Assembly: GCA_016206785.1 (NCBI GenBank)
Contig: JACQQV010000008.1
Coordinates: forward strand, 4,402-68,401
DNA length: 64,000 nucleotides
Origin: Candidatus Omnitrophota bacterium
Lineage (GTDB): Bacteria > Omnitrophota > Gorgyraeia > JACQQV01
Direction: 5' to 3'
Every line of letters starts with the position of its first letter. Position 1 is the first letter of the stretch. The notes beneath the pieces are model-generated. The model did no database searches. It saw nothing but the letters and a program-made list of their open reading frames with translations, and had not been told where the DNA came from. A program made the position numbers and the translations under genes. Below, piece by piece: positions 30,584-49,251 of the stretch.

Positions 30584-32263
30584 GTGACGCAGACAAAAAG
30601 GTCGATTGGGAAGACGCTTGTGGAAGCGGGCCGACTTTCCAGTGAGGAACTCAGGCAGGCCGAAGAAGAGGCCCGCCAAAAGAACCTTTCCCTGGATGAG
30701 GTCCTGATCCGCAATAACTTCATTTCTCAGGAAGAAAGAGGGGTGCTGTTGGCGGATCAGATGGGGGTCCTCTATGTCGATCTTGAAAATTATCTGGTCG
30801 ACCCCGCCGCCATTGCCCTTGTTTCTGAAGCTTTTGCTAAAAAACATTCCTTGGTTCCCCTTTTCCGGATCGGAAACACCTTGACCGTGGCCATGGCCAA
30901 TCCTCAGGATGTTCTTGTCATCGATGATCTTCGTCAGAAGACCAAATGTGAAATCGAACCCTGCTATACCACCGTCGGTGCCATTCAAAATGCGATCGAT
31001 CAATATTACGGAGTGAGCGGTTCTCTCGAAGAATTGATCAAAGACATCGATCGAGAGAAACTGGCGCAGGAAGCCCAACGGAAGGGGAGGACGCCGGAAC
31101 AGATCGCGGAGGAGGCCCCTATCATTAAACTGGTCAATATGATTGTGATGCAGGCGATCCGCGATCGGGCAAGCGACATCCATGTGGAACCTGCAGAAAC
31201 CGTTCTCCGCATCCGGTATCGTATTGACGGTATCTTGCACGAAATCGTAACCACTCCCCTCGAATTGCAGCCACCGATCGTCTCCCGCATCAAGATCCTT
31301 TCAAAAATGGATATCGCAGAAAAGAGGATTCCACAGGACGGCCGTTTTCAAATGAAGAGCGAGGGGAAAGAAATAGACCTTCGCGTCTCTTCCTTTCCGA
31401 CCGTCTACGGAGAAAATGTGGTGATGCGTCTTCTCGATCGAAGCAATCTCCTCTTAAGCCTCGAGGATATCGGTTTTCCAACGGCAACGCTCAAAAATTA
31501 TAATCAACTGATCCATCGGCCCTACGGCATTATCTTGGTGACCGGACCGACGGGGAGTGGCAAAACCACGACCCTCTATGCCACCCTCCAAGCCATCAAT
31601 ACCGTCGCAAAGAATATCGTTACGATCGAGGACCCTGTCGAATATCATTTGGAACTGGTCCGCCAATGTCAAGTCAACCCGAAAGTGGGTCTGACCTTTG
31701 CCAATGGACTTCGTTCGATCGTCCGCCAAGACCCGGACATCGTGATGGTGGGCGAGATCCGTGATATGGAAACCGCCGAGATCGCGATTCATGCGGCCCT
31801 CACCGGCCAACTCGTTTTCTCAACCCTTCACACCAATGACGCCCCCTCTGCGGTGACACGCCTCGTCGATATGGGGATAGAACCCTTTTTGCTCTCCTCC
31901 TCGGTCGTTGGCGTTTTAGCACAGCGTCTGGTCCGTATCATCTGTCTGAAATGCAAAGCCTCTTATACACCTCCTGCCGAACTCTTGAAAGAGTTAAACC
32001 TGCCGCTCAACACCCTCTTCTACCGGGGAAAGGGATGCAGCCATTGCAAGAATACCGGGTACCGGGGACGGCTCGGTATCTTTCAACTGATGCTCATGAC
32101 CGCGGAAGTGAGGGAGCTTATCTTAAAGAATAGTTCTGCAGACCAAATCCGGAAGGAGGCCCATAGAGCGGGAATGATCACCCTCCGTGACGACGGTCTC
32201 GACAAAGCCCGCCAAGGCATCACGACCGTCGAAGAGGTCCTCCGAGTGACTCAGGAAGTATAA
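30584..32263 (+). CDS. pilB: Type IV pilus / T2SS assembly ATPase (PilB/GspE family).
   Basis: N-terminal GSPII_E_N domain. Walker A GPTGSGKTTT. Asp box. His box. Tetracysteine Zn motif (CLKC...CSHC). Confidence 0.9.
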   Translation: MTQTKRSIGKTLVEAGRLSSEELRQAEEEARQKNLSLDEVLIRNNFISQEERGVLLADQMGVLYVDLENYLVDPAAIALVSEAFAKKHSLVPLFRIGNTLTVAMANPQDVLVIDDLRQKTKCEIEPCYTTVGAIQNAIDQYYGVSGSLEELIKDIDREKLAQEAQRKGRTPEQIAEEAPIIKLVNMIVMQAIRDRASDIHVEPAETVLRIRYRIDGILHEIVTTPLELQPPIVSRIKILSKMDIAEKRIPQDGRFQMKSEGKEIDLRVSSFPTVYGENVVMRLLDRSNLLLSLEDIGFPTATLKNYNQLIHRPYGIILVTGPTGSGKTTTLYATLQAINTVAKNIVTIEDPVEYHLELVRQCQVNPKVGLTFANGLRSIVRQDPDIVMVGEIRDMETAEIAIHAALTGQLVFSTLHTNDAPSAVTRLVDMGIEPFLLSSSVVGVLAQRLVRIICLKCKASYTPPAELLKELNLPLNTLFYRGKGCSHCKNTGYRGRLGIFQLMLMTAEVRELILKNSSADQIRKEAHRAGMITLRDDGLDKARQGITTVEEVLRVTQEV

Positions 32264-32266
32264 ACC

Positions 32267-33502
32267 ATGCCGGTATACCGATACAAGGTGCGTGACGCCT
32301 CGGGACAGGCCATCACCGGCACTGTGGCGATGGAGTCTCCGGAGGCGACCGCACGGCATTTAGAGGAAAAGGGATATATCCCGATTTCCATCGAGGAGGA
32401 AGGGGCTGTCAGCACGATGCTGAAACCCTCTTCTTTCAGAACCCGCTTCGCCTCCGTCAAAGACAAAGATCTCAATTTCTTTACCCGTCAGATGGTGACA
32501 CTCACAAAAGCAGGGATTCCCCTCGTGGCGGGCCTTCAAACCCTCAGGGACCAAACCGCGAGTGGAACCCTGAAAGGGGTCATCGCCGCTGTGGTGAGCG
32601 ATCTTGAGAGAGGAGAAAGTTTCTCAAGCGCCCTTTCCCACCATCCCCGCGTCTTTTCGGAGCTTTATGTGGCGATGGTGAGGGCGGGGGAAGCGACGGG
32701 ACAGTTGGATGAAATCTTATTCCGTCTGGTAGAACTCGGGGAGTATGACACCTATGTAAAATCGAAGATCAAGACCGCCACCTTCTATCCTAAGCTCATC
32801 ATGAGTATCATGTTTCTCGCGTTTCTCTTCATCACCACTTTTGTTCTCCCCCGTTTCGCCTCCTTTTTTCAACAGGCGGGGGTGGAACTCTTATGGACGA
32901 CGAAATTTCTCCTCTGGTTAAACTTTGCGTTACGGAATTACTGGTATGCGGCGATCGCCATCGTCGGAATGTTTGTCTACGGATTCCGTTATTTTTTAAA
33001 GACGAAGGTTGGGAGGAGACTGTGGGACACGGTGAATCTGAAGATCCCCGTTTTCGGAACGCTCTTTCACCAATTTGCGATGTCTCGTTTCTCACGTGTC
33101 CTCTCCATTACGAGTAGGAGCGGCGTTCCCATTCTTGAATCCCTTGAAATCGTTTCCCGTTCTGTAGGAAATGTCACGATCTCCTCCGAGGTCTTGAGAC
33201 TTCGGGAATCGGTTCGTCGAGGGGAAGGTCTTGCGAAGCCCATGTCGGAAGGTAAGCTTTTTCCTCCCATTGTGATCCGGATGGTCTCTGTCGGCGAGGA
33301 GACGGGGAAGTTGGATGAACTCCTTTTGCGGGTTTCGGAATACTACGATTTTGAAGTGGACAATGCCATTCAAAAGCTGACCATCTTGATCGAGCCGATT
33401 CTCCTCGTTGTTCTCGGCGGTATGGTTCTCTTTCTCATCCTTTCCATTTTTGTGCCGCTCCTCCGGTTCTACACCAAGATTGCCGGAGGAGGGGGAAGAT
33501 AA
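32267..33502 (+). CDS. pilC: Type IV pilus / T2SS inner-membrane platform protein (PilC/GspF family).
   Basis: Two GspF repeats. 3 TM. ~410 aa. Immediately downstream of pilB. Confidence 0.9.
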   Translation: MPVYRYKVRDASGQAITGTVAMESPEATARHLEEKGYIPISIEEEGAVSTMLKPSSFRTRFASVKDKDLNFFTRQMVTLTKAGIPLVAGLQTLRDQTASGTLKGVIAAVVSDLERGESFSSALSHHPRVFSELYVAMVRAGEATGQLDEILFRLVELGEYDTYVKSKIKTATFYPKLIMSIMFLAFLFITTFVLPRFASFFQQAGVELLWTTKFLLWLNFALRNYWYAAIAIVGMFVYGFRYFLKTKVGRRLWDTVNLKIPVFGTLFHQFAMSRFSRVLSITSRSGVPILESLEIVSRSVGNVTISSEVLRLRESVRRGEGLAKPMSEGKLFPPIVIRMVSVGEETGKLDELLLRVSEYYDFEVDNAIQKLTILIEPILLVVLGGMVLFLILSIFVPLLRFYTKIAGGGGR

Positions 33503-33514
33503 AGGGGCTGACCC

Positions 33515-33543
33515 TTGACAAAAAACGGATCGTCAGGTATACT
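33515..33543 (+). promoter_or_regulatory. Consensus sigma70 promoter. TTGACA-N17-TATACT.
   Basis: TTGACA at 33515-33520, 17-nt spacer, TATACT at 33538-33543. It begins 12 nt after the pilC stop. Confidence 0.65.
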
Positions 33544-33550: not shown

Positions 33551-33651
33551 AGACAAGATCCGAAAAAGGCACACCCGGGGAAACCCGGGGCCGCAAAGCT
33601 ATGGGTCTAAAGCCCCTGGGCATGACCGCCAAGCGTACCGAGGGTATGATC
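33551..33651 (+). ncRNA. Candidate c-di-GMP-I (GEMM-like) riboswitch aptamer / structured leader.
   Basis: GGCACA-CCCGGG-GAAA-CCCGGG-G-CCGCAAAGC at 33568-33599 mirrors the GEMM GGCAAA-P2-GNRA-P2-GACGCAAAGC core. A UCUAAAG...UAUGAUC tetraloop-receptor-like pair follows. See findings. Confidence 0.4.
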
Positions 33652-33686
33652 GCCAAGCTGCCGAAGGCAGGCTTGGCATTTTTTTT
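33652..33686 (+). terminator. Intrinsic terminator (expression platform of the leader).
   Basis: GCCAAGCUGCC-GAAG-GCAGGCUUGGC hairpin followed by an 8-U tract. Confidence 0.8.
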
Positions 33687-33746
33687 CGCCAGAAATTAAA
33701 GCATCTTAGAAAGTTTTGCATTTGGACATTTGCACAAAAATTTGGC

Positions 33747-33775: not shown

Positions 33776-33803
33776 TAAAGATCGAAGAAGGGAGGTAGCG
33801 TTT

Positions 33804-34319
33804 ATGGAAAGAACAAAGAAACGGACTCATCGTGGGTTCACGTTGATTGAACTTGTCATCGTGATCACCATTCTAGCGATCTTGGCTGCTGTGGCTATTC
33901 CAGCCTTCCAGAACCTTACCACTCAGGCGAGGAACGCAGGAACCAATGGGGCGCTTGGGGGACTTCGGAGCGCACTCGCCGTCTATAGAGCGAACGCGAT
34001 TTCAGCGGGTTGCGATCCTGCTGGAACAACAGGATTAGCCGCAACCGACTGTTGGCCGAGACTTGTAGATATAACGTCGAATAGCGTGATGGAGAATAAC
34101 ATTGTTCCTGCGAACCCTTGGGCTGTTACAGCAGGGATGACCGCTGCGGAGTCCAGTGGTATCGAGGCTGCCACTTCGGCACAGGCGGCCGCCCGTACCG
34201 TCGATGGCACTGGTGCTGGATGGCGATACTATATTGCAGACAATGCGACTCCCAATGGGATCATCTACGCCAATAGCACTTCAAACGGTGGAGGGACAGC
34301 CACAGAGAATACTTTCTAA
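33804..34319 (+). CDS. pilA: Type IV major pilin (PilA-like).
   Basis: Class III signal MERTKKRTHRG|FTLIELVIVITILAILAAVAIPAF with Glu+5. Ala/Thr/Gly/Ser-rich C-terminal region. Two Cys. Confidence 0.85.
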   Translation: MERTKKRTHRGFTLIELVIVITILAILAAVAIPAFQNLTTQARNAGTNGALGGLRSALAVYRANAISAGCDPAGTTGLAATDCWPRLVDITSNSVMENNIVPANPWAVTAGMTAAESSGIEAATSAQAAARTVDGTGAGWRYYIADNATPNGIIYANSTSNGGGTATENTF

Positions 34320-34344
34320 CAGGATTCTATGTCGTTGCATGACA

Positions 34345-34380: not shown

Positions 34381-34384
34381 CAGT

Positions 34385-36103
34385 TTGAAAGAGAGCCGCT
34401 TCATTAAAACCCCCTTCATCTTTTTTCTGCTTTTACTCGGGACCATCCTCTACTGGAATAGTCTTCAAACCCCTTTTATGTGGGATGAGAATTTCCTCAT
34501 CATCAAAGATCCGAGGGTGCATGCGTGGTCTCGATTTCTGGACATCTTTCGAGAACCCTTTCAAAGTAGAGAATCCGGCTTTTCAACATACCACCGTCCC
34601 TTCGTCACCCTCTCCTTCCGCATCGACCATCTCTTTTGGAAGCTGAATCCCCTCGGATACCATCTTACCAATCTGTTATTTCATCTTTCAAACACCCTTT
34701 TGGTCTACCTGTTATTCAGACGCCTGTTCCAGAGACCGTCTCTTTCTTTCTGGGGGGCCTTTCTCTTTTTGGCCCATCCGGCCCATGTGGAAGCGGTCAC
34801 CTATATTCCGGGACGGGTCGATCTCATCTCCTTTTTCTTTTTTCTTTGCAGTTTCCACTTTTACCTGAAAGGGAAAGCGCTCGAACAAACAGTTTGGTCT
34901 TATGCGTTATCCCTCCTTTTTTACCTTTTTGCGCTCCTCTCAAAAGAGATGGCGGCCTCTCTTCCACTTCTTGTTTTTTCCTATACACTTTTCGTGGATT
35001 TGAAAAAGACAAAACATAAAGATGCTGAACGAATTCTTTTGTTGGGATTCTTTCTTCTTTTGATCGCCTGGCTCCTTTTTCGTCAGTGGATTGTGATTCA
35101 AGTTCCATTGAAGACTCTCTTGGATCTTCCCCATCTTTTAAGAAGAGTCCTTGTGCTCCCGGTCGTGTTGTGGGCCTATCTCAACATTTGGTTTTTCCCC
35201 TGGCCTCTCTATATGGATCGGATGATTCCGATCATTCCTCTTGGGTTCCTTCCCTATCTTGTGGCATGGATTTTTCTTTTCCTTTGCGTGATCGGAATCT
35301 TTCTTTCTCTGCATCGGCCCCTCGAGAGATTTTGGCTTCTTTGGATCGGCTGGACGCTGCTTCCCGTGATTCACATCGTTCCGATCTACCTCAAATACCC
35401 CGACTCTCTTTTTATTGCAGAGCATTTTCTCTATTTCTCAAGTGTCGGAATCATCGGACTCCTCTTGTGCCGCTTCGGTCATTTCCTGGTTGCACAAAAC
35501 GGACACGAGGACCTCCCACCGAAAGGAGTTCTGGTATGGGGAGTCCTCTTAACTTGTTTCTCGTTTCTGGTGATCTGGAGGAATGGGGAATTTAGAGACC
35601 GCATTATCTTTTTTGAACAGACCGTCCGACATGCGCCCTGGGACAGCCGTGCCCATAATCAGCTGGGTCTTGCGTATCTTGAAAGAGGAAACTTGGAGAA
35701 GGCTGGGAAGTTATTTCGAAGGTCTGTCTCCTTAGCTCCCAACCCGAGTCCCTATGGGAACCTTGGAATTCTTGCGCAACAACAAGGGAAGATCGAGGAA
35801 GCGATTCAGTATCATCAAAAGGCGCTTGATCTGCTTCCAGGATATAGCGTCGCTCTTTTTAACCTTGGGAATCTGTACGCCCATCAGAAAGAATGGGATA
35901 AGGCGATTCAATTTTATGAGAATGCGGTAGAGAGCGATCCAGATCTCCTACAGAGTTACATAGAGGTAAGCCGCCTTTACTGGAAATTGGGGAAAATAAA
36001 AGAGGCACTTGGCGCAGTCCATCAGGGACTCCAAAAAGATCCTTCAGATCCCCATCTTCAGAGAATCAAAAGGTGGATCGAGGATGGGCCTTCTAACCCA
36101 TAG
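34385..36103 (+). CDS. TMTC-like (DUF1736 + TPR) GT-C family membrane protein, putative protein O-glycosyltransferase.
   Basis: WDENFLIIKDP, YHRPFVTLSF and NPLGYHLTNLLFH motifs typical of the DUF1736/TMTC family. ~11 TM. C-terminal TPRs. The TTG start sits in the terminator U-tract, so the start is uncertain. Confidence 0.6.
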   Translation: MKESRFIKTPFIFFLLLLGTILYWNSLQTPFMWDENFLIIKDPRVHAWSRFLDIFREPFQSRESGFSTYHRPFVTLSFRIDHLFWKLNPLGYHLTNLLFHLSNTLLVYLLFRRLFQRPSLSFWGAFLFLAHPAHVEAVTYIPGRVDLISFFFFLCSFHFYLKGKALEQTVWSYALSLLFYLFALLSKEMAASLPLLVFSYTLFVDLKKTKHKDAERILLLGFFLLLIAWLLFRQWIVIQVPLKTLLDLPHLLRRVLVLPVVLWAYLNIWFFPWPLYMDRMIPIIPLGFLPYLVAWIFLFLCVIGIFLSLHRPLERFWLLWIGWTLLPVIHIVPIYLKYPDSLFIAEHFLYFSSVGIIGLLLCRFGHFLVAQNGHEDLPPKGVLVWGVLLTCFSFLVIWRNGEFRDRIIFFEQTVRHAPWDSRAHNQLGLAYLERGNLEKAGKLFRRSVSLAPNPSPYGNLGILAQQQGKIEEAIQYHQKALDLLPGYSVALFNLGNLYAHQKEWDKAIQFYENAVESDPDLLQSYIEVSRLYWKLGKIKEALGAVHQGLQKDPSDPHLQRIKRWIEDGPSNP

Positions 36104-36182: not shown

Positions 36183-37868
36183 ATGGGGGTGAAACCGACA
36201 AAAAAAAGGGTAGGACGGAAGACTGAACTTTTTTGGCTCAATACCCTCTATGAAATCGTTCGAGATGTCAATTCAACCTTAGGCCTCAAAAGCACCTTAA
36301 AGACGATTGTTGAAAAGGCAAAGACACTCCTTAAAGTCGAACGGGCTTCTCTCATGCTTCTCGATAAGAAAGGGAAGACGCTCACCATCCATTTTGCGGA
36401 GGGCCTCTCCCCCTTGATTCTCCGCAATACGCGCATCAGGATCGGCGAAGGCGTTTCCGGATGGGTGGCTCAAAAGGGGAAGCCGCTTCTCATCCAAGAC
36501 ATTAGCAAAGACCGGCGCTTCAAGAAAAAAGAAGGGGCCCGCTACTCCACCGATTCCCTCCTTTCGGTTCCCCTCAAGGTCAAAGGAAAAACAATCGGCG
36601 TTTTAAATGTCAACAATAAAAGAGGAAGGAAGATTTTTACCCACGACGACCTGGAACTTTTAACCGCCCTTGCCGATGAAGCGGCGATCGCCATCCACAA
36701 TGCAACGCTTTATGATGAACTGGTCCAGGTGAATGAGCGTCTCAAGGAACTCGATAAACTGAAATCCGATTTTGTGGCGAAGGTCTCCCATGAACTTCGA
36801 ACCCCTCTTGCCACAACCCGTTACTTTATTACCGCGGTGCGGGGGGAGACCCAGAACACAGGCGCAACCCGCCAGAAAGAATACCTGGGCCTCATCGAAG
36901 ACAACCTTGACCGACTCACGCGGCTCATTGATAATCTCCTCGATTTTTCCAAGATGGAGGTGGGACGGTTTGAACTGAAGAAGGAGCGCGTCGATCTTTT
37001 ATCGATTGCGCGGTCGGCGATCGAAACCCTCCGAAGAAAAGGAGAGGAAAAGGAGATCGCCTTGGTGCTCTTAAGTCCAGGAAAAGTTCCTCCCACCTAT
37101 TTGGATCAGGACCGGATGACCCAAGTAGTCACGAATCTCGTCGACAATGCGATCAAGTATACCCCTTCAAAGGGGTCTGTTTCGGTTGAGATCAAAAGGG
37201 GGAACGGGAATATTCTCCTCACTGTTCGAGATACCGGGGTCGGGATCCGTTCGTCCGATCAGGAAAGGCTTTTCGAAAAGTTCCGGCAGCTCGGACCGAG
37301 CATCCCCCACGAAAAAGGGGTAGGGTTGGGGCTCGCCATTGTGAAAGAGATTGTAATACTTCACAAAGGAAAGATCTGGGTAAAATCGCAGGAAGGGAAG
37401 GGGAGCACATTCACCATCTCCCTTCCGGTTTTAAGCGACGAAGAATTTTTTATGGAGAGGTTGTCGCAGGAAATTCAGAAGGCGCGTGAAAACGGGGATT
37501 TCCTCTCCCTCGTGATTTTAGGAATTGCAAATTTCGAGCATCTTAAAGAAAATATCGGAGAAGAAGGGATGGAATCCCTTTTGGATGAGATCGCCCGCCT
37601 GGTGAAGGAAACGGTCCGCCGACCGAGCGACATCGTCGCCAGTTACAAGCAGGGGAAGGTGATCGCCATTTTAGCGGGTGCCGATAAGGCGGGGGCACTC
37701 GCGCTTGCAGAACGTGTGAAAAAGACGATCCTTTCTCAGCCTTTTCCGATCAAGGGTTCCCCGGTTTCACCGGAACTTCAGTTCGGGATCGGGACCTTTC
37801 CGGAGGATGGAGGAAGCCAAGAAGAATTGGTGAAGCAGGCAGAAAAAAGTTTATACGGTCATTCCTAA
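36183..37868 (+). CDS. GAF-sensor histidine kinase with a C-terminal degenerate GGDEF domain (RxxD I-site retained).
   Basis: GAF (LLKVERASLMLLD...GEGVSGWV). HisKA H-box (SHELRTPL). HATPase_c (NLVDNAIKYT...GVGLGL). C-terminal GGDEF fold with A-site SYKQGK in place of GG(D/E)EF, preceded by RPSD (RxxD). Confidence 0.7.
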   Translation: MGVKPTKKRVGRKTELFWLNTLYEIVRDVNSTLGLKSTLKTIVEKAKTLLKVERASLMLLDKKGKTLTIHFAEGLSPLILRNTRIRIGEGVSGWVAQKGKPLLIQDISKDRRFKKKEGARYSTDSLLSVPLKVKGKTIGVLNVNNKRGRKIFTHDDLELLTALADEAAIAIHNATLYDELVQVNERLKELDKLKSDFVAKVSHELRTPLATTRYFITAVRGETQNTGATRQKEYLGLIEDNLDRLTRLIDNLLDFSKMEVGRFELKKERVDLLSIARSAIETLRRKGEEKEIALVLLSPGKVPPTYLDQDRMTQVVTNLVDNAIKYTPSKGSVSVEIKRGNGNILLTVRDTGVGIRSSDQERLFEKFRQLGPSIPHEKGVGLGLAIVKEIVILHKGKIWVKSQEGKGSTFTISLPVLSDEEFFMERLSQEIQKARENGDFLSLVILGIANFEHLKENIGEEGMESLLDEIARLVKETVRRPSDIVASYKQGKVIAILAGADKAGALALAERVKKTILSQPFPIKGSPVSPELQFGIGTFPEDGGSQEELVKQAEKSLYGHS

Positions 37869-38261: not shown

Positions 38262-38287
38262 TCTTCTTAAATCTTTTTATCACCTAT

Positions 38288-38315
38288 TGACTTTTTAAAA
38301 CTCTCATGATATACT
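38288..38315 (+). promoter_or_regulatory. Sigma70 promoter. TTGACT-N16-TGaTATACT.
   Basis: TTGACT at 38288-38293, TATACT at 38310-38315. Confidence 0.6.
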
Positions 38316-41605: not shown

Positions 41606-42103
41606 ATGACCAAAAAAAGTGCTTTTACCCCGTTAAAGATGAAATCTTTAACGGGGTTTACCCTTATTGAACTGATGATCGTCATGGCGGTGATTGCGAT
41701 CTTAATCGGTATCATCCTCCCGATGGTTGGGGGGTTTCGAGAAGAGGCGAACATCAACCGGGCGAGGGGAGATTTGTCCACGTTACGAACCGCGATGGAG
41801 TCTTATTATATTCACCACAGTAACGCCTATCCGCCAGCGCTTACCGGACTCACCGACACGACGACAAATCCGAAGATTGTCACAAGAATTCCGGATGATC
41901 CTTTTTTGCCGGGAACGACCTATCAGGTTCTTTACAGTACCAATAACCAGTTCTACGCGCTCTGGTCGGTTGGACCGGGGGGAACAGCTTCTGTCACAGC
42001 AGTAGCAAACACAGGGGGTGTGACCCAAGCCCAAGGAGCGGGGGCTCGGAACCCGATCTGGGTTGCCAATGGGGATGAACAGACTCCTGCCGAATCCCCT
42101 TAA
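41606..42103 (+). CDS. gspG: GspG-like major pseudopilin (prepilin-type N-terminal cleavage/methylation domain).
   Basis: G|FTLIELMIVMAVIAILIGIILP with E+5. RARGDLSTLRTAMESYY resembles the GspG helix. Two candidate starts, ATG 41606 (strong RBS) or ATG 41639. Confidence 0.8.
   Translation: MTKKSAFTPLKMKSLTGFTLIELMIVMAVIAILIGIILPMVGGFREEANINRARGDLSTLRTAMESYYIHHSNAYPPALTGLTDTTTNPKIVTRIPDDPFLPGTTYQVLYSTNNQFYALWSVGPGGTASVTAVANTGGVTQAQGAGARNPIWVANGDEQTPAESP
41627..41657. repeat. 14-bp perfect inverted repeat ACCCCGTTAAAGAT-gaa-ATCTTTAACGGGGT (copy 2) enclosing ATG 41639.
   Basis: Arms at 41627-41640 and 41644-41657. The second arm encodes KSLTG of the prepilin leader. Confidence 0.85.
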
Positions 42104-42201: not shown

Positions 42202-42630
42202 ATGACCCAAAAAGGATTTACCCCGTTAGAGATGAAATCTCTAACGGGGTTTACCCTGATTGAACTGATCCTTGCTATTATTCTTTTTGCAGGGGCGACG
42301 GTCCCTCTCCTCCTCGCTCTCAATCAGGGGCTTTTTGCCACCACCTATTCGGAACATCGTCAGATCGCCGTAGGTCTCGCCCTCAATGAACTGGAGGATG
42401 TGGAACGGGATGCGGGACAAAATTGCGGTCGGTGGGATCGGGTGAGGAACGCCGCCAAGGCCCCCATTGCGGATTTTCCGACATTCCAAAGGCAAATTGT
42501 TGTTTCGAATCCTCCCGGTACGGATACGAATTTAAAAGAGGTGCGCGTCATCGTCTATTGGACGGATCAGGTAGAAAATTCAGCAACGCTTGTCACTTAT
42601 TTTGTGAACAATCCGAACGGTTGCCCATGA
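42202..42630 (+). CDS. gspI: GspI/PilV-like minor pseudopilin.
   Basis: G|FTLIELILAIILFAGA with E+5. ~140 aa. Candidate starts ATG 42202 (no RBS) or ATG 42232 (inside the hairpin). Confidence 0.7.
   Translation: MTQKGFTPLEMKSLTGFTLIELILAIILFAGATVPLLLALNQGLFATTYSEHRQIAVGLALNELEDVERDAGQNCGRWDRVRNAAKAPIADFPTFQRQIVVSNPPGTDTNLKEVRVIVYWTDQVENSATLVTYFVNNPNGCP
42220..42250. repeat. 14-bp perfect inverted repeat ACCCCGTTAGAGAT-gaa-ATCTCTAACGGGGT (copy 3) enclosing ATG 42232.
   Basis: Arms at 42220-42233 and 42237-42250. It differs from copy 2 by a compensated A/G plus T/C pair. Confidence 0.85.
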
Positions 42631-43271
42631 AAAAAAGTGGTTTAACCCTTATGGAACTGATGCTCGTTATGATTGGGATGTCGATCCTGTTTGGCGTCGG
42701 CGTCTTCGCTTTTCTGGCCGCTTCCAAAGCGGTCCAGAGGCAGCAGGAAAGAATTTCACCGGGAGAGGAACTTTCACAGGGACTGCAGAAGGTGGCGCGG
42801 GAACTTCGGGAAGCGGCCGATGATGCCATCGGAGATTCGAACGGAACGATCACACAGTCTAGTAGTACCGGCGGTAGCGGGAATATTGCCAACACCATTC
42901 GATATCAGGATGTGGAGGATAATCAATTTTACGTCCTCTATCTTTATGGCATTGATGGTGATTCTTCTACGCCAGATGATACCGTTTTCGACAGCTCGTA
43001 CATTTCTACCGTCCTTTATCAGTTACGATTAGCACCTGCCGCGGGATTCACGTATGGTTCAGGAAGAATTTTGGCGCGAACCATCATGTCTCCCAATGCG
43101 TCGGACCCGGTCGATCAGGCGGTGATTCAGCGGGGAAGCGGTCGTGAGCAGCGACGGATCGAACTCATACTGACCGCAACACAGATTTCTGGAGCAGTTT
43201 CTCAAAAAAGCGAGAAGGTCAAAATGCGCCTTATGATCCGTCCAAGAAATCAGGGAAACTCAGTCATTTAG
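42627..43271 (+). CDS. GspJ/PilW-like minor pseudopilin.
   Basis: MKKSGLTLMELMLVMIGMSILFGV prepilin-type N-terminus. Start ATG 42627 overlaps the upstream stop (ATGA). Confidence 0.65.
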   Translation: MKKSGLTLMELMLVMIGMSILFGVGVFAFLAASKAVQRQQERISPGEELSQGLQKVARELREAADDAIGDSNGTITQSSSTGGSGNIANTIRYQDVEDNQFYVLYLYGIDGDSSTPDDTVFDSSYISTVLYQLRLAPAAGFTYGSGRILARTIMSPNASDPVDQAVIQRGSGREQRRIELILTATQISGAVSQKSEKVKMRLMIRPRNQGNSVI

Positions 43272-43281: not shown

Positions 43282-43749
43282 ATGAACCTGAGGAATCACA
43301 GAGGGGTGACCCTTCTCCTTGTTTTTATCTTGATGATCGCTCTCCTCGGCCTTGTCTCTTCTTTTCTTTTCATGGCGATGGTGCAGGCCCGTCATTCAGG
43401 AGGGCATCTCGATGATGAGAAAGCCTTTTACGTGGCTCAAGCGGCACTGCGAAGAGGGGTCTGGCGCCTTCTTTATACGGAACCCCCTCCTCTTACGAAT
43501 TGGAGACTTAACGACGGAACTTGGCCGAAAACTGAACCATCGGGTTCCATGGACACGGGAGATGGGATGACCGGGACTTATTCTCTCACGGTGACACTGA
43601 CGGCCCTCGACGGAGGCCCTTGGAATGTTACCTTTGACGCGACCGGTACCATGCATGGTATTTCCCGTCGGGTTCAGCGCATCTACCGTTCTACAAACCT
43701 CAATGTGAACGCTTTAACGCCTGTCTTTAACTCATGGAAAGAAATTTGA
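43282..43749 (+). CDS. GspK/PilX-like minor pseudopilin (short).
   Basis: RGVTLLLVFILMIALLGLV (GspK-type, no Glu+5). DEKAFYVAQAALRRGVW helix. Confidence 0.6.
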   Translation: MNLRNHRGVTLLLVFILMIALLGLVSSFLFMAMVQARHSGGHLDDEKAFYVAQAALRRGVWRLLYTEPPPLTNWRLNDGTWPKTEPSGSMDTGDGMTGTYSLTVTLTALDGGPWNVTFDATGTMHGISRRVQRIYRSTNLNVNALTPVFNSWKEI

Positions 43750-45419
43750 ACAACATCCTTCGTCGCATCGATTGGAAGAAAGGGATTGAAAAAATCCCGT
43801 GGAAAAGGGAAGAGTTTGTCCTCAGTCTCGACATCGGGACGAGTGCCATCAAGTGGGTTCTTTTGAGAAATTCAAAGGAAGGACCCCTTTTTTTGGAAGG
43901 GGGGATGGAAGATCCGAAAAACCTCCGGGCGATTCTTGAGAAAAAGGCGACGTCCAAAAAGTGCAGGGTGCGGATCGCGATCTCGGGGCCAAAGGTTCTT
44001 TTAAAAAGGGTCCTTCTTCCCAAGATGCCACCTCAAGAGATTGAGACGGCCTTGCGTTGGCAGGTGAAAGAGGAAATCCCTTTTCCGATTCAAGAAGTCT
44101 ATCTTGATTTTCAGGAGATTCGCTCTATTGAAAAGGAAGGAAAGCATCTCCTTGATCTTCTGGTGGGGGTCGTCCATAAAGAATTGGTCGATTCCCTTTT
44201 AAGTATCGGTCCCTTTGAGATAGACACGATTGAGCCGGCTCTCCTTCTTCTTCCCCGTCTTTTTTCCCTTGAAAAGAGAAACGATTATGCACTCATCGAT
44301 TTGGGCGCCTCCACCACCCATGTCGGCATTTTTCATGAAGGGATATTGGAGATGGCAAGGGAGATCTCGATTGGAGGAGAGACCCTGACCCAGGCCTTAA
44401 CCTGTGAAATCATGATTGGGGAAAAGAAATGCTCCCTGGGGAAAGAAGAGGCGGAAAAGGCAAAACTCTCTTACGGTATTTCTCAAGAGACTTCCACCGC
44501 TTCCGTCGGTACGGAGATGCCGCCGGAGAAATTGTGGGTTCTCATGCGGCCGATTCTTGAAAGACTTCTTGGGGATCTGGAACGTTTCTTCCAGTTTTAC
44601 GAGAAGAGAGATCCTCCTCGCGAAATTCAAGAAGTCTGGGTCACCGGAGGCGGTGCCGGCCTTCAGCATCTCGACGATCTTCTGAAGAGGCATCTCGGTC
44701 TTGCACCTGAAGGACTTTCCTTTTTGAGTCAATTTCGTTTTTCGCAAGGCTTTTTGAGAGACACCCCCCAGGAGGAGATTGAAAGGCGTCTGGGTGTGGC
44801 TGTGGCGGCGGCCCTTCCTCGGAAAGAGATCATCAATTTTCTCCCGCCCTCTGTGAAGGCTTCGCGGCAATGGCGGTTTCGGGTCCGGATGACAAAAACC
44901 GCTTCTTTCTTGACCATCATTTTTTTGGCAGGGTTTCAGCTTTTCTTTGCCATCGAGAGGGTGGCATTGAAAAACGCGATTCAAAAGAAAAAGAAAATCT
45001 GGGAGGAACTCGCTTCCCAGCGGGAGACCTATATGCGTTGGATGGACAAGAAGAAGCATGCCGAAAAGGTGGTTCAAACGTTTTCAAATTTTTTGGAGAG
45101 AGAACCTCTGTGGGAGGGAGTCTTAAAAGAACTTTCTTGGCTCGTTCCGAAAGCGGTTTCTTTAAAGGAGCTCAAGATGGAAAACGGTTCTTTAAGTCAA
45201 GGAAAGAAGAACTACCGGGTTCATCTCAAGGGGGAGGTGGGAGGGTCAAAGGAATCGGCAGAGGAGACCCTCACCCATTTCTTGGAGGCGCTTGAAGCTT
45301 CTCCCTTCTTTGAGGGAATCCGACTTGTTTCGACGGAAGGGGAGGCCTCTTCCGAAGGAGGGATTCCATTTGAAGTTACCGGCCAGCTTGAATTGGAAGG
45401 CGCTTCAAAAGAGGATTGA
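43734..45419 (+). CDS. GspL-like assembly protein: PilM-type actin-like cytoplasmic domain fused to a PilN-type TM and periplasmic domain (copy 1).
   Basis: LSLDIGTSAIKWVLL and ALIDLGASTTHVGIF actin-fold motifs. Then TM SFLTIIFLAGFQLFFAI and a coiled-coil periplasmic region. Confidence 0.7.
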   Translation: MERNLNNILRRIDWKKGIEKIPWKREEFVLSLDIGTSAIKWVLLRNSKEGPLFLEGGMEDPKNLRAILEKKATSKKCRVRIAISGPKVLLKRVLLPKMPPQEIETALRWQVKEEIPFPIQEVYLDFQEIRSIEKEGKHLLDLLVGVVHKELVDSLLSIGPFEIDTIEPALLLLPRLFSLEKRNDYALIDLGASTTHVGIFHEGILEMAREISIGGETLTQALTCEIMIGEKKCSLGKEEAEKAKLSYGISQETSTASVGTEMPPEKLWVLMRPILERLLGDLERFFQFYEKRDPPREIQEVWVTGGGAGLQHLDDLLKRHLGLAPEGLSFLSQFRFSQGFLRDTPQEEIERRLGVAVAAALPRKEIINFLPPSVKASRQWRFRVRMTKTASFLTIIFLAGFQLFFAIERVALKNAIQKKKKIWEELASQRETYMRWMDKKKHAEKVVQTFSNFLEREPLWEGVLKELSWLVPKAVSLKELKMENGSLSQGKKNYRVHLKGEVGGSKESAEETLTHFLEALEASPFFEGIRLVSTEGEASSEGGIPFEVTGQLELEGASKED

Positions 45420-45978
45420 GAAAAGAGATCTTCTTCTGATAGGAGCCGTGGGGGCCCTTTTCTTCCTTCTTCTCCTTTATGGGTTTTGGTTTCGTCCCCG
45501 TCTCCGGCTGATTCAGGGACTCTCTCGGGAACTTCAGACGCTCCGGATCCAAATCAGGGATGCGCAGCTCTTGGAGAATGTGTCCCGCATCCAGAATGAA
45601 ATTTCCGAGATCGAGAAGACCTACGGAGGAAGATTTTTCAAGCGGAATGAAATCCCACGCGCCTTGGAATTTTTGAAGGATTACCTCACAAAATATCGCT
45701 TGGACATTCTGTTTCTTAAACCTGAATTGAAGGAGGATCTCTCTCCTTTTGTCTTGGGTCCCACTCTTTTCCTGGATACCATTCCTGTTCGCCTTCGCCT
45801 CAAAGGGGATTATGTAGATACGGGACGCTTTTTAGGAAGCCTTAAGGAACTTCCTTTTCTAACAACCGTGGAACTTCTTCAGATGGGGAGCCCTCAAACG
45901 GTCTATCCGAAAGTGGAAACTCAGCTCACGTTATTCCTTTATCTTGAAAGACAAGAAGGAGCCGTTCGTGGAAGGTAA
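45388..45978 (+). CDS. GspM/PilO-like bitopic protein (copy 1).
   Basis: TM LLLIGAVGALFFLLLLYGFWF, a coiled coil and a C-terminal domain. Start uncertain (track TTG 45292; TTG 45388 proposed). Confidence 0.55.
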   Translation: MNWKALQKRIEKRDLLLIGAVGALFFLLLLYGFWFRPRLRLIQGLSRELQTLRIQIRDAQLLENVSRIQNEISEIEKTYGGRFFKRNEIPRALEFLKDYLTKYRLDILFLKPELKEDLSPFVLGPTLFLDTIPVRLRLKGDYVDTGRFLGSLKELPFLTTVELLQMGSPQTVYPKVETQLTLFLYLERQEGAVRGR

Positions 45979-46424: not shown

Positions 46425-46453
46425 TTGACATCCTGAGAGATGTATGCTAACTT
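46425..46453 (+). promoter_or_regulatory. Sigma70 promoter. TTGACA-N17-TGcTAACTT.
   Basis: TTGACA at 46425-46430, 17-nt spacer, TAACTT at 46448-46453. Precedes the second gspL-like gene. Confidence 0.5.
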
Positions 46454-46475
46454 GTTGTGTTATAGGATGTAAGAA

Positions 46476-48179
46476 ATGAAGCCACCCGCCACAAAGATCC
46501 CGTTGGAAAAGATAAAATTGAGCAAAAAGGAAACCCTCTCACTCTTAAGTTATGCCTTGGGAGTGGGTGAGAAGCCGGGTCCCTTTGCCGCTCTCTCCGT
46601 CGGAAACCGTTCTTTAAAATTGGTGGAGGTCATGGTTGAAGAAGGGAAACGGGAACTCTTGGGGCATTGGTTTAAGGAAATTTTCATCAGGGAAGATCTT
46701 GCGGAGGATCTGAGACAGAAGGAGCTTCAAAAAAGCGCCATCGCTTTTTTGAAAGGGTGCCCGATCTCTTCCAGGAAAATCCACCTCGGTTTTGGAGCAG
46801 AGGTGATGCCTGTGAAGAAGGTGACTGTTCCAGAGATGCCGAAGGAAGAACTTCCTCAGGCCCTCCGATGGGCGGTCCGTGCCCAGCTCCCCTTTGATGT
46901 AGAACGGGCCCTCTTCGAATTTGACATCTTAAGTACAGTGGGAAGGAAGCAAGAGGCCGTTGTCGTCTCTGCCCGCGAGGGGCTTCTCACGGAGTGGGTG
47001 TTTACGATGCAGGAGGCAGGTTACCACGTGGCCAGTATCACATCCAATCCATTATCCCTTTTGGCCTGGATGAAAGAAGGGAATATTCTTTCAGGGCCAG
47101 ATCCGATCGCTTTGTTGGACATCGGGACCCTGCGCACCTCTCTTTATATTTCGATCCATGGGAAGCCCAGTTTTATACGGGAGCTGGACATCGGGGGTGA
47201 GGCCATCACTCAAGCCTTGACCCGTCCCCTCGCGACGGAGAGGGGGGAGCTCAAACTGGGTTACGAAGAAGCCGAACAGCTCAAACGTTCTTACGGCTTT
47301 CCTCTGGAAGGGCAGATCTCCGATGAAAAAGTCAATGCCTCTCAAATAGTTTCTTTAATGCGTCCTCTTCTGGAACGGCTGGCGAGCGAGATCAGACGCT
47401 CTTTTGATTATTATCAGGAAGAATTTGAAGGTCGGGTCCAGAAGGTTTACCTGTTGGGGGGTTCTTCCCACCTCAAACATCTCACCGACTTTCTTTCGGA
47501 AAAATTGGTCCTTTCGGTCGAGATCCTTCCTTTACCCCCAGGGTTTCTCTGGCAGACGCAGAAGATCAACGAGGCGGATCTCCGCGAACGTTTGCCCCTC
47601 CTCGCCCCTGCTCTCGGTCTGGCGTTTCAGGAGGGGAGGGGATTTAACCTTTTGCCATCCCGCTTCCGACTGAAGAAATCGCAGAAGGTCGAGCGGATCG
47701 CGATGAGGATCTCCACGATCGTCATCGTCTTCATGCTTTTCATCGTTTTTTCTTATCGATTGAAAGAGGTCGGTTCACTGGAGAGGCAGCGCTCCCTTTC
47801 GCAGTCCTCCTGGAAGGCGATCCAGGAGATCGAAACGATGAAACAGGCGCTTAAGGAGCGAAGAGGGGTCGTTGCGAAAATCAAAGAGGGGCACCCTTAT
47901 CTCTTGGAGACTCTCTCGGAAATCTCCAGTCTTCTTCCCCCGCATGCAGTGCTTGATAAGATCTCACAACCGCGGGGAACCGCCGAACTCCATTTTTCAG
48001 GGACGATTTTCGGGTTGCATGAGAAGTCTACGGAGGTTCTACTGGGAGAACTGATCTCCAGTTTTGAAAAATCTCCTTTTGTTAAAGAGGTGAAGTTGGT
48101 TTCATTCCAGCGGGATGAGACGTACGATCGGCCTGCCAGTAATTTTGAAATTTTTTTCCGGTTAAAGGTGCACCAATGA
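46476..48179 (+). CDS. GspL-like PilM+PilN fusion protein (copy 2).
   Basis: LLDIGTLRTSLYISI and ELDIGGEAITQAL actin-fold motifs. TM ISTIVIVFMLFIVFSY. Periplasmic coiled coil. Confidence 0.7.
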   Translation: MKPPATKIPLEKIKLSKKETLSLLSYALGVGEKPGPFAALSVGNRSLKLVEVMVEEGKRELLGHWFKEIFIREDLAEDLRQKELQKSAIAFLKGCPISSRKIHLGFGAEVMPVKKVTVPEMPKEELPQALRWAVRAQLPFDVERALFEFDILSTVGRKQEAVVVSAREGLLTEWVFTMQEAGYHVASITSNPLSLLAWMKEGNILSGPDPIALLDIGTLRTSLYISIHGKPSFIRELDIGGEAITQALTRPLATERGELKLGYEEAEQLKRSYGFPLEGQISDEKVNASQIVSLMRPLLERLASEIRRSFDYYQEEFEGRVQKVYLLGGSSHLKHLTDFLSEKLVLSVEILPLPPGFLWQTQKINEADLRERLPLLAPALGLAFQEGRGFNLLPSRFRLKKSQKVERIAMRISTIVIVFMLFIVFSYRLKEVGSLERQRSLSQSSWKAIQEIETMKQALKERRGVVAKIKEGHPYLLETLSEISSLLPPHAVLDKISQPRGTAELHFSGTIFGLHEKSTEVLLGELISSFEKSPFVKEVKLVSFQRDETYDRPASNFEIFFRLKVHQ

Positions 48180-48778
48180 ATCTTCCAACACCTCTCAGCA
48201 AGATCTTCAAGGCTCGATTCAGTCATCGCGAACTGGTCCTCTGGTCGATCGGCCTCATTCTTTTCATCGTTCTTTTTATACAGTTTTTCATTATCCCGGC
48301 TGGCCATCGCGCCCTCCGACTCAAGAAAGAAATTGCCGTCATGAAAACACGCTATCAACAACTGGTCGCGCAAGAGGGATCTTTGGAGCAGACCATCATT
48401 TCCCTGCAGAAAGAGCTCACGAGCCTGGAAGAGAGTCTTCCCCACCAAGAGAAAATTTCAGGAATTCTAAAGGCCCTCTCGGAGAAGGCCAGTCATTTGG
48501 GCATTCAGGTTATTTCGATACGTCCCGAATCGGCCGTCCCTTACCCCAATGCGACAAATCCCCTCCTTTTGGGCGGTCGGTCTTGCGAGGCCCTTTCGAT
48601 TCAGATGGAACTTCGGTGTTCCTATCGGGTGCTGGGAGGATACCTCACCTCGATTGAACAGGCATTTCCCTCCGCGATTACGATAGACGGAGTGAATATT
48701 CAAAAGGAGGGTGGGAAATCTTCCACCCTGAAGGTAACCCTTTTTGTGACAACCTATCTTTTCGGAAATTCTCCGTAA
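48176..48778 (+). CDS. GspM/PilO-like protein (copy 2).
   Basis: TM LVLWSIGLILFIVLFIQFFII, a coiled coil and a C-terminal domain. ATGA overlap with the upstream gene. Confidence 0.6.
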   Translation: MNLPTPLSKIFKARFSHRELVLWSIGLILFIVLFIQFFIIPAGHRALRLKKEIAVMKTRYQQLVAQEGSLEQTIISLQKELTSLEESLPHQEKISGILKALSEKASHLGIQVISIRPESAVPYPNATNPLLLGGRSCEALSIQMELRCSYRVLGGYLTSIEQAFPSAITIDGVNIQKEGGKSSTLKVTLFVTTYLFGNSP

Positions 48779-48786
48779 GGTTCCCT

Positions 48787-49251
48787 ATGGCTGGCGACCC
48801 GCAGAAAGAAAGAAGGAAAAAGATCATCGCAGTCGTCCTTGTCTGCTTCTTTCTCCCCCTTCTCTGGTATAACGTGCATCGTGCGCAGAAGAGTATTTCT
48901 CCGGTGCCACAAACGATGCCTCCGCAAGAAACACCTCCCTCTCCCGCCTCTTCTGAAGCGTTGACGGCAACGGAACTTCTCACGTGGAAACGGGATCCTT
49001 TTATTTTGGGTATCGGGAAAGAAGGTGAGCTTCCGACATTGCAACTCAAGGTGAGCGGGATTATCTACGATGAGACACGGCCTGAAGCGACCTACGCGAT
49101 TATTAATGAAGAGGTAGTCCGGATCGGGGATAACCTCCACGGGATTAAGGTGATCGACATTCAACCCGATTATGTGCGTCTCAAGAAATTTAACCAAGAA
49201 GTGATCCTTTATCTTTACCAGGAAAAAGTCACAGGGGAAGAGGGAGAATGA
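48787..49251 (+). CDS. PilP/GspC-HR-like protein (copy 2).
   Basis: TM. Pro-rich linker. LKVSGIIYDETRPEATYAIINEEVVRIGDNLHGIKVIDIQPDYVRLK beta-domain. Confidence 0.6.
   Translation: MAGDPQKERRKKIIAVVLVCFFLPLLWYNVHRAQKSISPVPQTMPPQETPPSPASSEALTATELLTWKRDPFILGIGKEGELPTLQLKVSGIIYDETRPEATYAIINEEVVRIGDNLHGIKVIDIQPDYVRLKKFNQEVILYLYQEKVTGEEGE

Follow-up and report, generated by a model that had tools for sequence, protein, structure and literature searches.

A type IV filament locus in an Omnitrophota genome that probably encodes two anciently diverged machines, one nested in the other

The stretch of Omnitrophota DNA analysed here, hereafter the window, is 64 kb long and comes from a metagenome-assembled genome (MAG; contig JACQQV010000008.1); it carries a pilus locus at 30584-49251 on the + strand. 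This locus probably comprises two complete, independently transcribed and anciently diverged type IV filament machines, one nested in the other. System 1 would consist of the extension ATPase PilB1 (B1), the platform PilC1 (C1), the pilin PilA, a signalling pair made of a histidine kinase (HK) and a response regulator (RR), and the triplet MN2-O2-P2, in which MN is a PilM-PilN fusion with a transmembrane (TM) segment between the two parts, O a PilO/GspM-like protein and P a PilP/GspC-HR-like protein; this set is common to single-system relatives at the same site. System 2, placed between the RR gene and MN2, would consist of an HTH_17 protein, PilB2 (B2), PilC2 (C2), pilin G, three minor pilins and MN1-O1-P1.

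A sequence-only reading of the window had proposed one machine accompanied by a tandem duplication of an L-M-C module. Its gene content and order were borne out by the listing of open reading frames (ORFs) and by Pfam and NCBIfam profile searches of those ORFs, on which all family assignments below rest, and so were its two ATPase-platform pairs (two T2SSE/MshEN proteins and the T2SSF pairs), its single visible minor-pilin set (I, J and K) and its mixture of type IV pilus and type II secretion system (T2SS) family signals. The duplicated module did not stand: four relatives with a single system have one triplet each, orthologous to the second triplet here, and the first triplet forms a clade of its own. 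Relatives thus resolve an apparent duplicated sub-module into two whole machines, which corrects the annotation and modelling of the locus. New here are a riboswitch of the c-di-GMP-I type in front of pilA, a GGDEF domain that is degenerate but has kept its I-site, and a 33-nt palindrome in frame in two prepilin leaders. Pili are thought to mediate host attachment in Omnitrophota, according to one account of the phylum (PMC10066038); two filaments, a riboswitch-gated pilin and a kinase resembling a c-di-GMP receptor lead to concrete, testable regulatory hypotheses for these bacteria.

Relatives with one system and with two

We collected the genomic context of MN1 and MN2 homologues, with up to 10 kb of flanking DNA per side of each relative locus. 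Single systems are found in four lineages: L002/L006 (near-identical MAG contigs of ~151.5 kb, GCA_964374045.1 and CAMTXH01), L013, L015 and L016. All are found at the same site in the chromosome, with yggS-proC-yggT-(PNP)-ileS-lspA-lgt immediately downstream. The order in L002 is pilB-pilC-pilin, four small mostly pilin-like ORFs, a gene for a 421-aa protein, HK, RR, MN, O, P and yggS. The visible stretch of L015 starts at pilin-like genes and a gene for a 471-aa protein and continues with the corresponding downstream genes; in L013, L015 and L016, RR is followed directly by MN-O-P-yggS. In BLASTP comparisons, the L002 PilB is 71% identical to B1 and 55% to B2, PilC 66.5% to C1 and 35% to C2, MN 52% to MN2 and 26% to MN1, O 41% to O2 and 26% to O1, and P 51% to P2 and 28% to P1, while its pilin is 57% identical to PilA and its HK and RR are 62% and 71% identical to those of the window. 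We assign MN2-O2-P2 to system 1, with B1, C1, PilA, HK and RR, because it is orthologous to the sole triplet of the single-system relatives, whose upstream genes are visible in L002/L006. HTH-B2-C2-G-I-J-K-MN1-O1-P1 then reads as a second full system between RR and MN2. The two triplets would then be neighbours simply because one complete system is contained in the other.

The nested layout occurs in the window, L004, L010/L011 and L014 (a MAG labelled TA06); one assembly with this layout is GCA_022562655.1. MN2 of L004 is 62% identical to that of the window, MN1 of L010/L011 is 80% identical, and in L014 P1 is followed by an MN2-type gene whose product is 54% identical to MN2. The HTH_17 gene keeps its position in L004 and L010 and also heads a distant locus with the order of mannose-sensitive haemagglutinin (MSH) genes, L012; a counterpart of the 572-aa membrane protein with tetratricopeptide repeats (TPR) that precedes HK in the window is kept in L010. 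We built a neighbour-joining tree (200 bootstraps), in which the proteins of MN1 type and those of MN2 type fall into one clade each (both at 100%). The two clades are sisters with respect to two more distant fusions (84%), and the nested genomes form a subclade within the MN2 clade (100%).

Inside the window, B1 and B2 are 56% identical, C1 and C2 36%, and MN1 and MN2 27%; likeness between O1 and O2 or between P1 and P2 was not detectable by BLASTP at E <= 1e-3. The split of the two systems is ancient, and the triplets are diverged paralogues rather than recent copies, as the sequence-only reading had held. A recent tandem duplication is ruled out by the 27% identity together with the clade structure. 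Both PilM-PilN-fusion/PilO/PilP-like sets are intact, as are all ORFs of the locus. The ratio of non-synonymous to synonymous substitution rates (dN/dS) relative to L010 lies between 0.02 and 0.22 for 14 genes, a stretch that starts at the TPR membrane gene, takes in HK and system 2 and ends in the N-terminal part of MN2 (MN1 0.12, O1 0.16, P1 0.18). The genes compared are under purifying selection and neither triplet is decaying, which contradicts a degenerate second copy and rules out a pseudogenised one.

The most parsimonious history would be a single arrival of system 2 in the nested subclade; its loss elsewhere is also possible. No stand-alone system 2 was found among the loci collected: a metagenome scan with the MN1 family returned L010 again only, and a scan of genome contigs with the MN2 family gave 5 loci only. 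Insertion scars around system 2 were looked for and none were found. The idea that HTH_17 is a mobile-element excisionase marking a recent insertion is ruled out: the nested lineages compared have kept the gene under purifying selection, and L012 has it too. Double loci as such are not unheard of, with a precedent in Denise et al.

Minor pilins and the autonomy of system 1

L002 and L015 have a row of small, mostly pilin-like genes and a 421-471-aa protein between the pilin and HK. In the window and L010, the nested genomes in which this stretch is readable, TPR membrane proteins precede HK instead of minor pilins. The I-J-K set of system 2 is not orthologous to the L002 set, local matches reaching only ~29%. 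Since single-system relatives have minor pilins of their own where the nested genomes have TPR membrane proteins, the suggestion of the sequence-only reading that two machines share pseudopilins gains some support, and system 1 may borrow the minor pilins of system 2.

In a stronger form, system 1 would have lost its minor-pilin or tip set, the I-J-K set of system 2 would prime both filaments, and both P proteins would dock on one secretin encoded in trans. We rate such interdependence as possible but rather improbable. If true, one cell would build two filaments, of PilA and of G, from shared priming and exit parts and under cyclic-dinucleotide control.

The larger protein that closes the pilin-like row (6582-7847 in L002, 3211-4626 in L015) is a candidate tip adhesin and has no counterpart in the window. 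The N-terminus of the 421-aa L002 protein resembles the K-like pilin of the window, and the middle region of both large proteins weakly matches F5/8 type C (discoidin) domains.

The 572-aa protein of the window had been called TMTC-like. Its architecture of hydrophobic segments followed by TPR repeats was confirmed, while its membrane domain matched no Pfam or NCBIfam family. The predicted local distance difference test (pLDDT) score of its AlphaFold model is ~33 in the membrane domain, and the model is confident in the TPR part only; with no family match and an unusable model, an identity as a TMTC-like or GT-C glycosyltransferase is unsupported. It is possibly a pilin-modifying or assembly factor. 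Two further multi-pass membrane proteins, divergent from the locus, are possibly associated with it. The one at 28418-~30400 (- strand) has TPR repeats and is a distant paralogue of the 572-aa protein, 25% identical in pairwise alignment; the one at 26499-28421 (- strand) has no family match. L010 carries two multi-pass TPR membrane proteins in tandem at 1-2286. On the pilotin-type models PilW and Tgl, these TPR parts give weak scores that stay well under the cut-off.

Relation to named classes of machine

Judged by their family matches, both systems sit between type IVa pili (T4aP), MSH pili and T2SSs, and neither is a clean member of a named class. The NCBIfam PilB model gives 657 bits for B1 and 636 for B2 against a cut-off of 675.65, and the GspE model TIGR02533 gives 629.8 and 626.5 against 630.25. 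The solved structures nearest to B2 are those of T4aP PilF/PilB, which match over the full length at ~520-529 bits, above the GspE core at ~449 bits. For MN2 they are T4aP PilM structures from Thermus (2YCH) and Myxococcus (3JC8), and GspL was not among its solved-structure matches up to E = 1. The best NCBIfam models for MN1 and MN2 are the Akkermansia Amuc_1101 family and pilM, both far below cut-off. Amuc_1101-family PilM-like proteins belong to a pilus-like cluster of Akkermansia (Verrucomicrobiota); the match to their model (NF045709) runs past the PilM domain, over profile positions 8-458 of 608, and reaches 105.7 and 116.3 bits against a cut-off of 650, so the MN proteins are not members. 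T2SSL reaches only E 0.012 with the MN proteins and GspL 15-22 bits against a cut-off of 65, and the GspM-like matches of the O proteins are weak.

Other components lean towards Gsp models, which score best, although below cut-off in every case, for the platforms (GspF), both major pilins (GspG, PilA included), the I-like pilin (GspI) and the P proteins (GspC). Pilin G reaches 55 bits with GspG (cut-off 89) and the I-like pilin 21 bits with GspI (cut-off 44). The J-like ORF had no family match, the K-like one no T2SSK domain, and no GspH was found, in Pfam or NCBIfam. The three ORFs earlier named GspI, GspJ and GspK are indeed pilin-like, but those names rest on sub-threshold matches.

These mixed signals could also mean that system 2 is a T2SS, with a pseudopilus and no retraction, and system 1 a surface pilus. 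This functional split, which we regard as unlikely, is consistent with the T2SS order E-F-G-minor pilins-L-M, with the lack of a PilT nearby, with the Gsp models that are best for the platform, major pilin, I and P, and with the position of B2 relative to the GspE cut-off. It is countered by the better, full-length alignment of B2 to T4aP PilB/PilF, by the MN proteins, which match PilM and PilN above threshold and not T2SSL or GspL, and by the lack of a GspD, a GspH, a PDZ-bearing GspC and a GspK domain at the locus; PilA of system 1 matches GspG best as well. Gene order does not discriminate, because the T2SS-like order E-F-G-minor pilins-L-M-C of system 2 recurs in system 1 of the single-system relatives.

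The likenesses and differences can be set out class by class. With the T4aP of Thermus, Myxococcus and Pseudomonas the window shares ATPases near PilF/PilB, MN proteins near PilM, matches to PilM_2, PilN and PilO, and a modelled PilP fold in P2. It differs in that PilM and PilN are fused in both copies, so that the separate PilM, PilN, PilO and PilP plus PilQ of a T4aP are not found; in that its P proteins are TM-anchored, whereas T4aP PilP is a lipoprotein; in the arrangement of its genes in one T2SS-like colinear block, with no PilQ, PilT, PilD or PilY1 in cis; and in ATPases that score below the PilB equivalog cut-off. T4aP have already been reported as nearly universal in Omnitrophota (PMC10066038).

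With the MSHA (type IVe) pilus it has in common the triplet of MN fusion, O-like and P-like proteins, MshEN-type ATPase N-termini, the lack of PilT and a c-di-GMP theme. It has no MshL, MshM-like AAA protein or soluble MshN, and its order is E-F-pilins-MN-O-P rather than I-J-K-L-M-N-E-G. In tblastn searches with the MshL-, MshM- and MshN-like proteins of L012, the window gave P-loop and generic TPR matches only, and no MSH-specific NCBIfam model was matched. The MSHA pilus is said to be restricted to a few Proteobacteria (PMC10191384). L012 itself is distant (MN 25-30% identical) and has the order HTH_17, HK, RR, platform, pilins, MN, O, P, secretin, AAA, TPR, ATPase, which from MshI to MshE is the MSH order; its secretin belongs to a large family annotated as MshL by the Joint Genome Institute (JGI), which includes a 'Deltaproteobacteria' MAG.

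The T2SS is alike in the order E-F-G-(I-J-K)-L-M, the L-type fusion, the GspC-HR-like domain and the lack of a retraction ATPase; PulL has been described as a PilM+PilN fusion (PMC10191384), and the PilM-TM-PilN architecture of MN1 is GspL/MshI-like. The window differs from it in lacking GspD and GspH, in a C-like protein without PDZ or coiled-coil, in a K-like protein of 155 aa without T2SSK, and in ATPases with the long PilB/MshE-type N-terminus.

We would call both systems generic T4aP-derived filaments whose alignment proteins are fused, as in GspL and MshI. A profile built from both MN types matched 2017 clusters (50% identity, E <= 1e-30), and of the top 150 clusters nearly all are 520-600 aa long and span the whole profile; the PilM-PilN fusion is thus common, and its family is essentially uncharacterised. 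Nested, riboswitch-gated and without a linked secretin, the locus arranges in an unusual way a filament type that is widespread yet has been little studied, intermediate between T4aP, T2SS and MSH; it is not a new kind of machine. It combines T4aP-like motors and PilM/PilN/PilO signatures with a T2SS-like fused L and gene order in a phylum related to the Planctomycetes-Verrucomicrobia-Chlamydiae group, and the large fusion family bears on the origin of T2SS-type and MSH-type layouts from T4aP.

Transcription units and the adjacency of the triplets

Promoter-like sites with 10-11 of 12 matches lie in the gaps before B1, pilA, HK, HTH and pilin G. The window, L004 and L010 all have the promoter TTGACT-17-TATACT in front of HTH. 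The two strongest terminators on the + strand lie directly after pilA (34344-34374) and pilin G (42151-42176), where major pilin genes with high expression usually have one. The two systems are therefore apparently independently transcribed units. A promoter for the second triplet at 46425, proposed by the sequence-only reading, has a perfect TTGACA -35 element, a 17-nt spacer and an upstream TG, but its -10 element, TAACTT, is weak and the site falls below the scan threshold.

The triplets are 70 nt apart with this weak promoter between them, only one minor-pilin set is visible and the arrangement is kept in four lineages, all of which would suit one composite machine, in which two L-M-C-like sets form a heteromeric or double-ring complex for a single filament with two ATPase/platform pairs. 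We consider this highly improbable: single-system relatives run on B1/C1/A-type genes and an MN2/O2/P2-type triplet alone, every core part is present exactly twice with the two sets in different clades, and the sets have separate major pilins, each gene with a promoter and a terminator to itself. The two-ring or heteromeric alignment complex put forward earlier consequently finds no support in the relatives, which show two whole systems, one inside the other.

Secretin, prepilin peptidase and retraction ATPase

The lack of a secretin, PilD and PilT in cis, already remarked on in the sequence-only reading, holds within the 64 kb window. Among the large ORFs scanned there, Pfam searches found no Secretin, Peptidase_A24 or PilT-type protein, and the only T2SSE-family proteins are the two ~560-aa PilB-like ATPases, neither of which is a PilT. 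A tblastn search with the MshL secretin of L012 had no match in the window or in the Omnitrophota loci collected up to then; the same search recovered the expected secretin downstream of MN/O/P in a gammaproteobacterial locus. No Secretin family was among the Pfam families recorded for called genes in the later loci (L013, L014, L015, L016), and no secretin was found in the flanking DNA of any related locus, in eight related lineages. A search for secretin homologues with the L012 protein was saturated by Desulfobacterota-type MshL and is uninformative on Omnitrophota.

The P proteins point to a secretin nonetheless. The GspC-HR/PilP/GspB fold is known for binding the N0 domain of secretins. 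A profile of nine P sequences matched the GspC HR domain 2LNV (E 0.009). In the AlphaFold model of P2, the C-terminal domain has pLDDT 83-89, and its top six fold matches, all with probability >= 0.98, are Myxococcus xanthus PilP, GspB, GspC HR with GspD, PulC HR, Pseudomonas aeruginosa PilP and LspC; the next matches drop to <= 0.6. This domain is conserved in sequence in P1, and no PDZ domain was found on the P proteins (Pfam). Because the modelled domain of P2 has the secretin-docking fold and is conserved in P1, a secretin is likely encoded elsewhere, which lends indirect support to what the sequence-only reading had presumed; secretin genes are often unlinked. The prepilin peptidase would also be encoded elsewhere. 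RcpA-type genes, which belong to the Tad system, have been reported in Omnitrophota (PMC10066038); in the supplements of Seymour et al., pilQ and secretin go unmentioned.

Truly secretin-independent filaments, with P proteins that dock on something else or an envelope that needs no secretin, would account directly for the loci without a secretin gene and for L007, where MN-O-P is followed by V-type ATPase genes and not by a secretin. We nevertheless think this very doubtful in view of the fold modelled for P2 and kept in P1, of L012, in which MN-O-P is directly followed by the MshL secretin, and of the unlinked genes and RcpA-type reports just mentioned. A lineage without any secretin at all would be a more radical variant of the interdependence considered above.

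L007 (3373-6451, in a MAG labelled Nitrospirota) has MN-O-P and then directly genes for V-type ATPase subunits (I, c/K and E); its MN is 37% identical to that of L012. This layout recalls the co-location of pilus loci with unusual rotary ATPases reported in Omnitrophota (PMC10066038).

Signs of cyclic-dinucleotide control

RF03167 is matched over its whole length (model positions 1-80 of 80) in the leader of pilA, between C1 and pilA. The match scores 68.5 bits (E 4e-14), where the gathering score is 59, and lies 16 nt after a promoter-like site. The second hairpin has a 31-nt insertion relative to the model. In the minimum free energy (MFE) fold, the 3' strand of the aptamer is taken up by a hairpin of 11 bp, after which come eight consecutive U. 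As this terminator hairpin competes with the aptamer for the 3' strand, ligand binding should block termination, which would probably make the element an ON switch for pilA. It resembles GEMM/c-di-GMP-I riboswitches before pilus and motility genes in its full-length match, its place in the leader of a major pilin gene and the intrinsic terminator that follows; it differs from them in that its best model is the GGC variant, in the insertion, and in its distribution among relatives (see below).

The kinase was expected to carry a degenerate GGDEF domain, and the sequence bears this out: it reads RPSD-IVASY-KQGKV, with the RxxD I-site kept exactly five residues upstream and KQGKV in place of GGDEF. 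The L013 HK has the same degenerate motif with an I-site. Such a motif suggests that the histidine kinase is fused to a domain that acts as a c-di-GMP receptor. The tandem 24-residue motifs in the MshEN-type N-termini of both ATPases are only partly conserved. Expression and activity are apparently tied to a cyclic dinucleotide.

A working model and the points that weigh against it

In the model that we favour, of two whole machines, each hexameric ATPase would, by homology, drive its own platform, and processed pilins would be extracted from the inner membrane and polymerised. The actin-like cytoplasmic PilM half of each fusion would clamp the motor, and the periplasmic PilN half would pair with its PilO-like partner. 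The bitopic P protein would dock, through its GspC-HR/PilP-fold domain, on the N0 domain of a secretin encoded elsewhere, and a prepilin peptidase would be supplied in trans. Because no PilT is encoded nearby, the filaments are probably non-retractile and adhesive, or else short pseudopili. Control by a cyclic dinucleotide would be exerted at three points, namely the pilA riboswitch, the MshEN-type N-termini of the ATPases and the receptor-like GGDEF domain of the kinase.

Several observations weigh against this account. In the window, no minor pilins of system 1 are visible in cis, and that system may not be autonomous. No secretin, prepilin peptidase or PilT was located in the window or in the <=10 kb flanks of the relatives, and we infer supply in trans. 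The direction of change, insertion of system 2 or its loss in the single-system lineages, rests on parsimony over a neighbour-joining tree. As for regulation, no counterpart of the riboswitch was detected in front of the L002 orthologue of pilA, and c-di-GMP is a putative ligand for the GGC riboswitch variant. The MshEN tandem motifs match at 7-8 of 11 positions, and the c-di-GMP motif model NF053729 gives 29.1 and 26.4 bits for the two ATPases against a cut-off of 38.

Gene map

The features of the locus and its upstream neighbours are collected in Table 1. MN1 and MN2 have ~560 aa each and align collinearly over their full length. A windowed scan found one TM segment each in MN1, MN2, P1, P2 and O2, and none in O1, the start of which is uncertain.

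Table 1. Features of the filament locus and its upstream neighbours, with positions in the window
Feature	Position	Strand	Evidence and remarks
Two multi-pass membrane proteins, divergent from the locus	26499..30400	-	5' limit of second gene approximate
Promoter-like site 5' of pilB1	30527..30555	+	TTGACA-17-TATACT, 11/12, TG
PilB1 (B1), system 1 putative extension ATPase	30584..32263	+	Pfam T2SSE 9e-141 (core), MshEN 5e-21 (N-terminus)
PilC1 (C1), system 1 platform	32267..33502	+	Pfam T2SSF x2
Promoter-like site for pilA transcript	33515..33543	+	TTGACA-17-TATACT, 11/12
c-di-GMP-I-clan riboswitch aptamer, pilA leader	33559..33666	+	Best model RF03167 (c-di-GMP-I-GGC)
Terminator hairpin and U-run overlapping aptamer 3' strand	33652..33687	+	MFE fold; terminator scan match 33659-33678, then T8
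PilA, system 1 putative major pilin	33801..34319 (start ~33801)	+	N_methyl 2e-09; leader MERTKKRTHRG|FTLIELV
572-aa multi-pass membrane protein, C-terminal TPR repeats	34385..36103	+	TPR families the sole matches; 7 hydrophobic segments
GAF-HisKA-HATPase histidine kinase (HK) with degenerate GGDEF	36183..37868	+	Pfam; promoter-like site 36123-36151
Response regulator (RR), single REC domain	37869..38261	+	Pfam 5e-26
System 2 promoter-like site	38287..38315	+	TTGACT-17-TATACT, TG; kept in L004, L010
Palindromic element copy 1, 5' untranslated region (5'UTR) of HTH gene	38339..38373		Absent there in L004, L010
HTH_17 (excisionase-family) DNA-binding protein, 74 aa, system 2	38385..38609	+	Pfam HTH_17 8e-17; 5 nt upstream of pilB2
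PilB2 (B2), system 2 putative extension ATPase	38614..40287 (start ~38614)	+	Pfam T2SSE and MshEN
PilC2 (C2), system 2 platform	40289..41500	+	Pfam T2SSF x2; NCBIfam GspF 377 bits, cut-off 424
Pilin G, system 2 putative major pilin, GspG/T2SSG-like	41606..42103	+	N_methyl and T2SSG; promoter-like site 41504-41532; strong terminator 42151-42176
Minor pilin I, system 2, weakly GspI-like	42202..42630	+	Palindromic element copy 3 in leader
Minor pilin, J position, system 2	42627..43271	+	Leader MKKSG|LTLMEL; 55% identical to L004 orthologue
Minor pilin, K position, without Glu5	43282..43749	+	PilX_N 1.9e-4; 155 aa
MN1, system 2 PilM-TM-PilN fusion	43734..45419	+	PilM_2 5e-24, PilN 4e-06; one TM 389-407
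O1, system 2, PilO/GspM-like	45292..45978 (start uncertain, 45292-45448)	+	PilO 1.5e-4; gene call in L001
P1, system 2, PilP/GspC-HR-like bitopic protein	45944 (or 45968)..46405	+	CdsD_C 1.5e-6, T2SSB 2.5e-4, T2SSC 5.6e-3
Weak promoter-like site before MN2	46425..46453	+	TTGACA-17-TAACTT, TG upstream; read from sequence
MN2, system 1 PilM-TM-PilN fusion	46476..48179	+	PilM_2 1e-19, PilN 5e-3
O2, system 1, PilO/GspM-like	48176..48778	+	PilO 2e-09, T2SSM_b 2e-4
P2, system 1, PilP/GspC-HR-like bitopic protein	48787..49251	+	T2SSC-like; AlphaFold model of C-terminal domain fold

Upstream of the locus, a 940-aa ORF (28418-31240, - strand) overlaps pilB1 by ~650 nt, and its first ~280 codons are probably spurious. 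A real gene start near 30400 would leave a divergent promoter region of ~180 nt, which has promoter-like sites on both strands (30504-30555).

A palindromic element in prepilin leaders

A palindromic element of ~33 nt, with the core ACCCCGTTA[GA]AGAT-GAA-ATCT[CT]TAACGGGGT and the pattern ACCCCGTTARAG-N-CTYTAACGGGGT, is present in three copies in the window. The first (38339-38373) lies in the 5'UTR of the HTH gene, and the others in the genes of pilin G (41627-41657) and pilin I (42220-42250); the half-site occurs six times in the window, always within system 2, against an expectation of 0.15. Copies 2 and 3 are in frame in the leader-peptide codons, where they add 11 residues (…F[TPLKMKSLTGF]TLIEL), and restore the canonical G|FTLIEL cleavage site. 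Both are flanked by the direct repeat TTTACCC, a possible target preference.

L010, the closest relative, is without all three copies. In L004, copies at 5244-5274, 5807-5868 and 13184-13212 lie in G, in I (two in I) and, as an in-frame 33-nt copy, inside yggS. Conserved operators of the HTH protein can be ruled out as an explanation of the palindromes, since L010 lacks every one of the three and L004 lacks the one in the HTH leader. By analogy with the Rickettsia palindromic elements, this looks like a tiny in-frame palindromic mobile element. In-frame palindromes in prepilin leaders are a small and unusual case of repeat DNA tolerated in coding sequence.

The rest of the window

The remainder of the window holds housekeeping genes. 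The division and cell wall (dcw) cluster at 10661-26502 runs through mraW, an ftsI-type penicillin-binding protein (PBP) gene, murE, murF, mraY, murD, ftsW, murG, murC, murB, ddl, ftsQ and ftsA; it stops at ftsA with no ftsZ after it, and the genes that come next are encoded on the other strand. Further genes are yggS, proC, yggT, a PNP-family gene, ileS, lspA, lgt, a pseudouridine synthase gene and an EPSP-synthase-family gene, as well as mreB, mreC and genes of the PBP2 and RodA types. Also present are ligA, truB, ribF and an integrase-family recombinase gene, which is xerC/D-like by its context.

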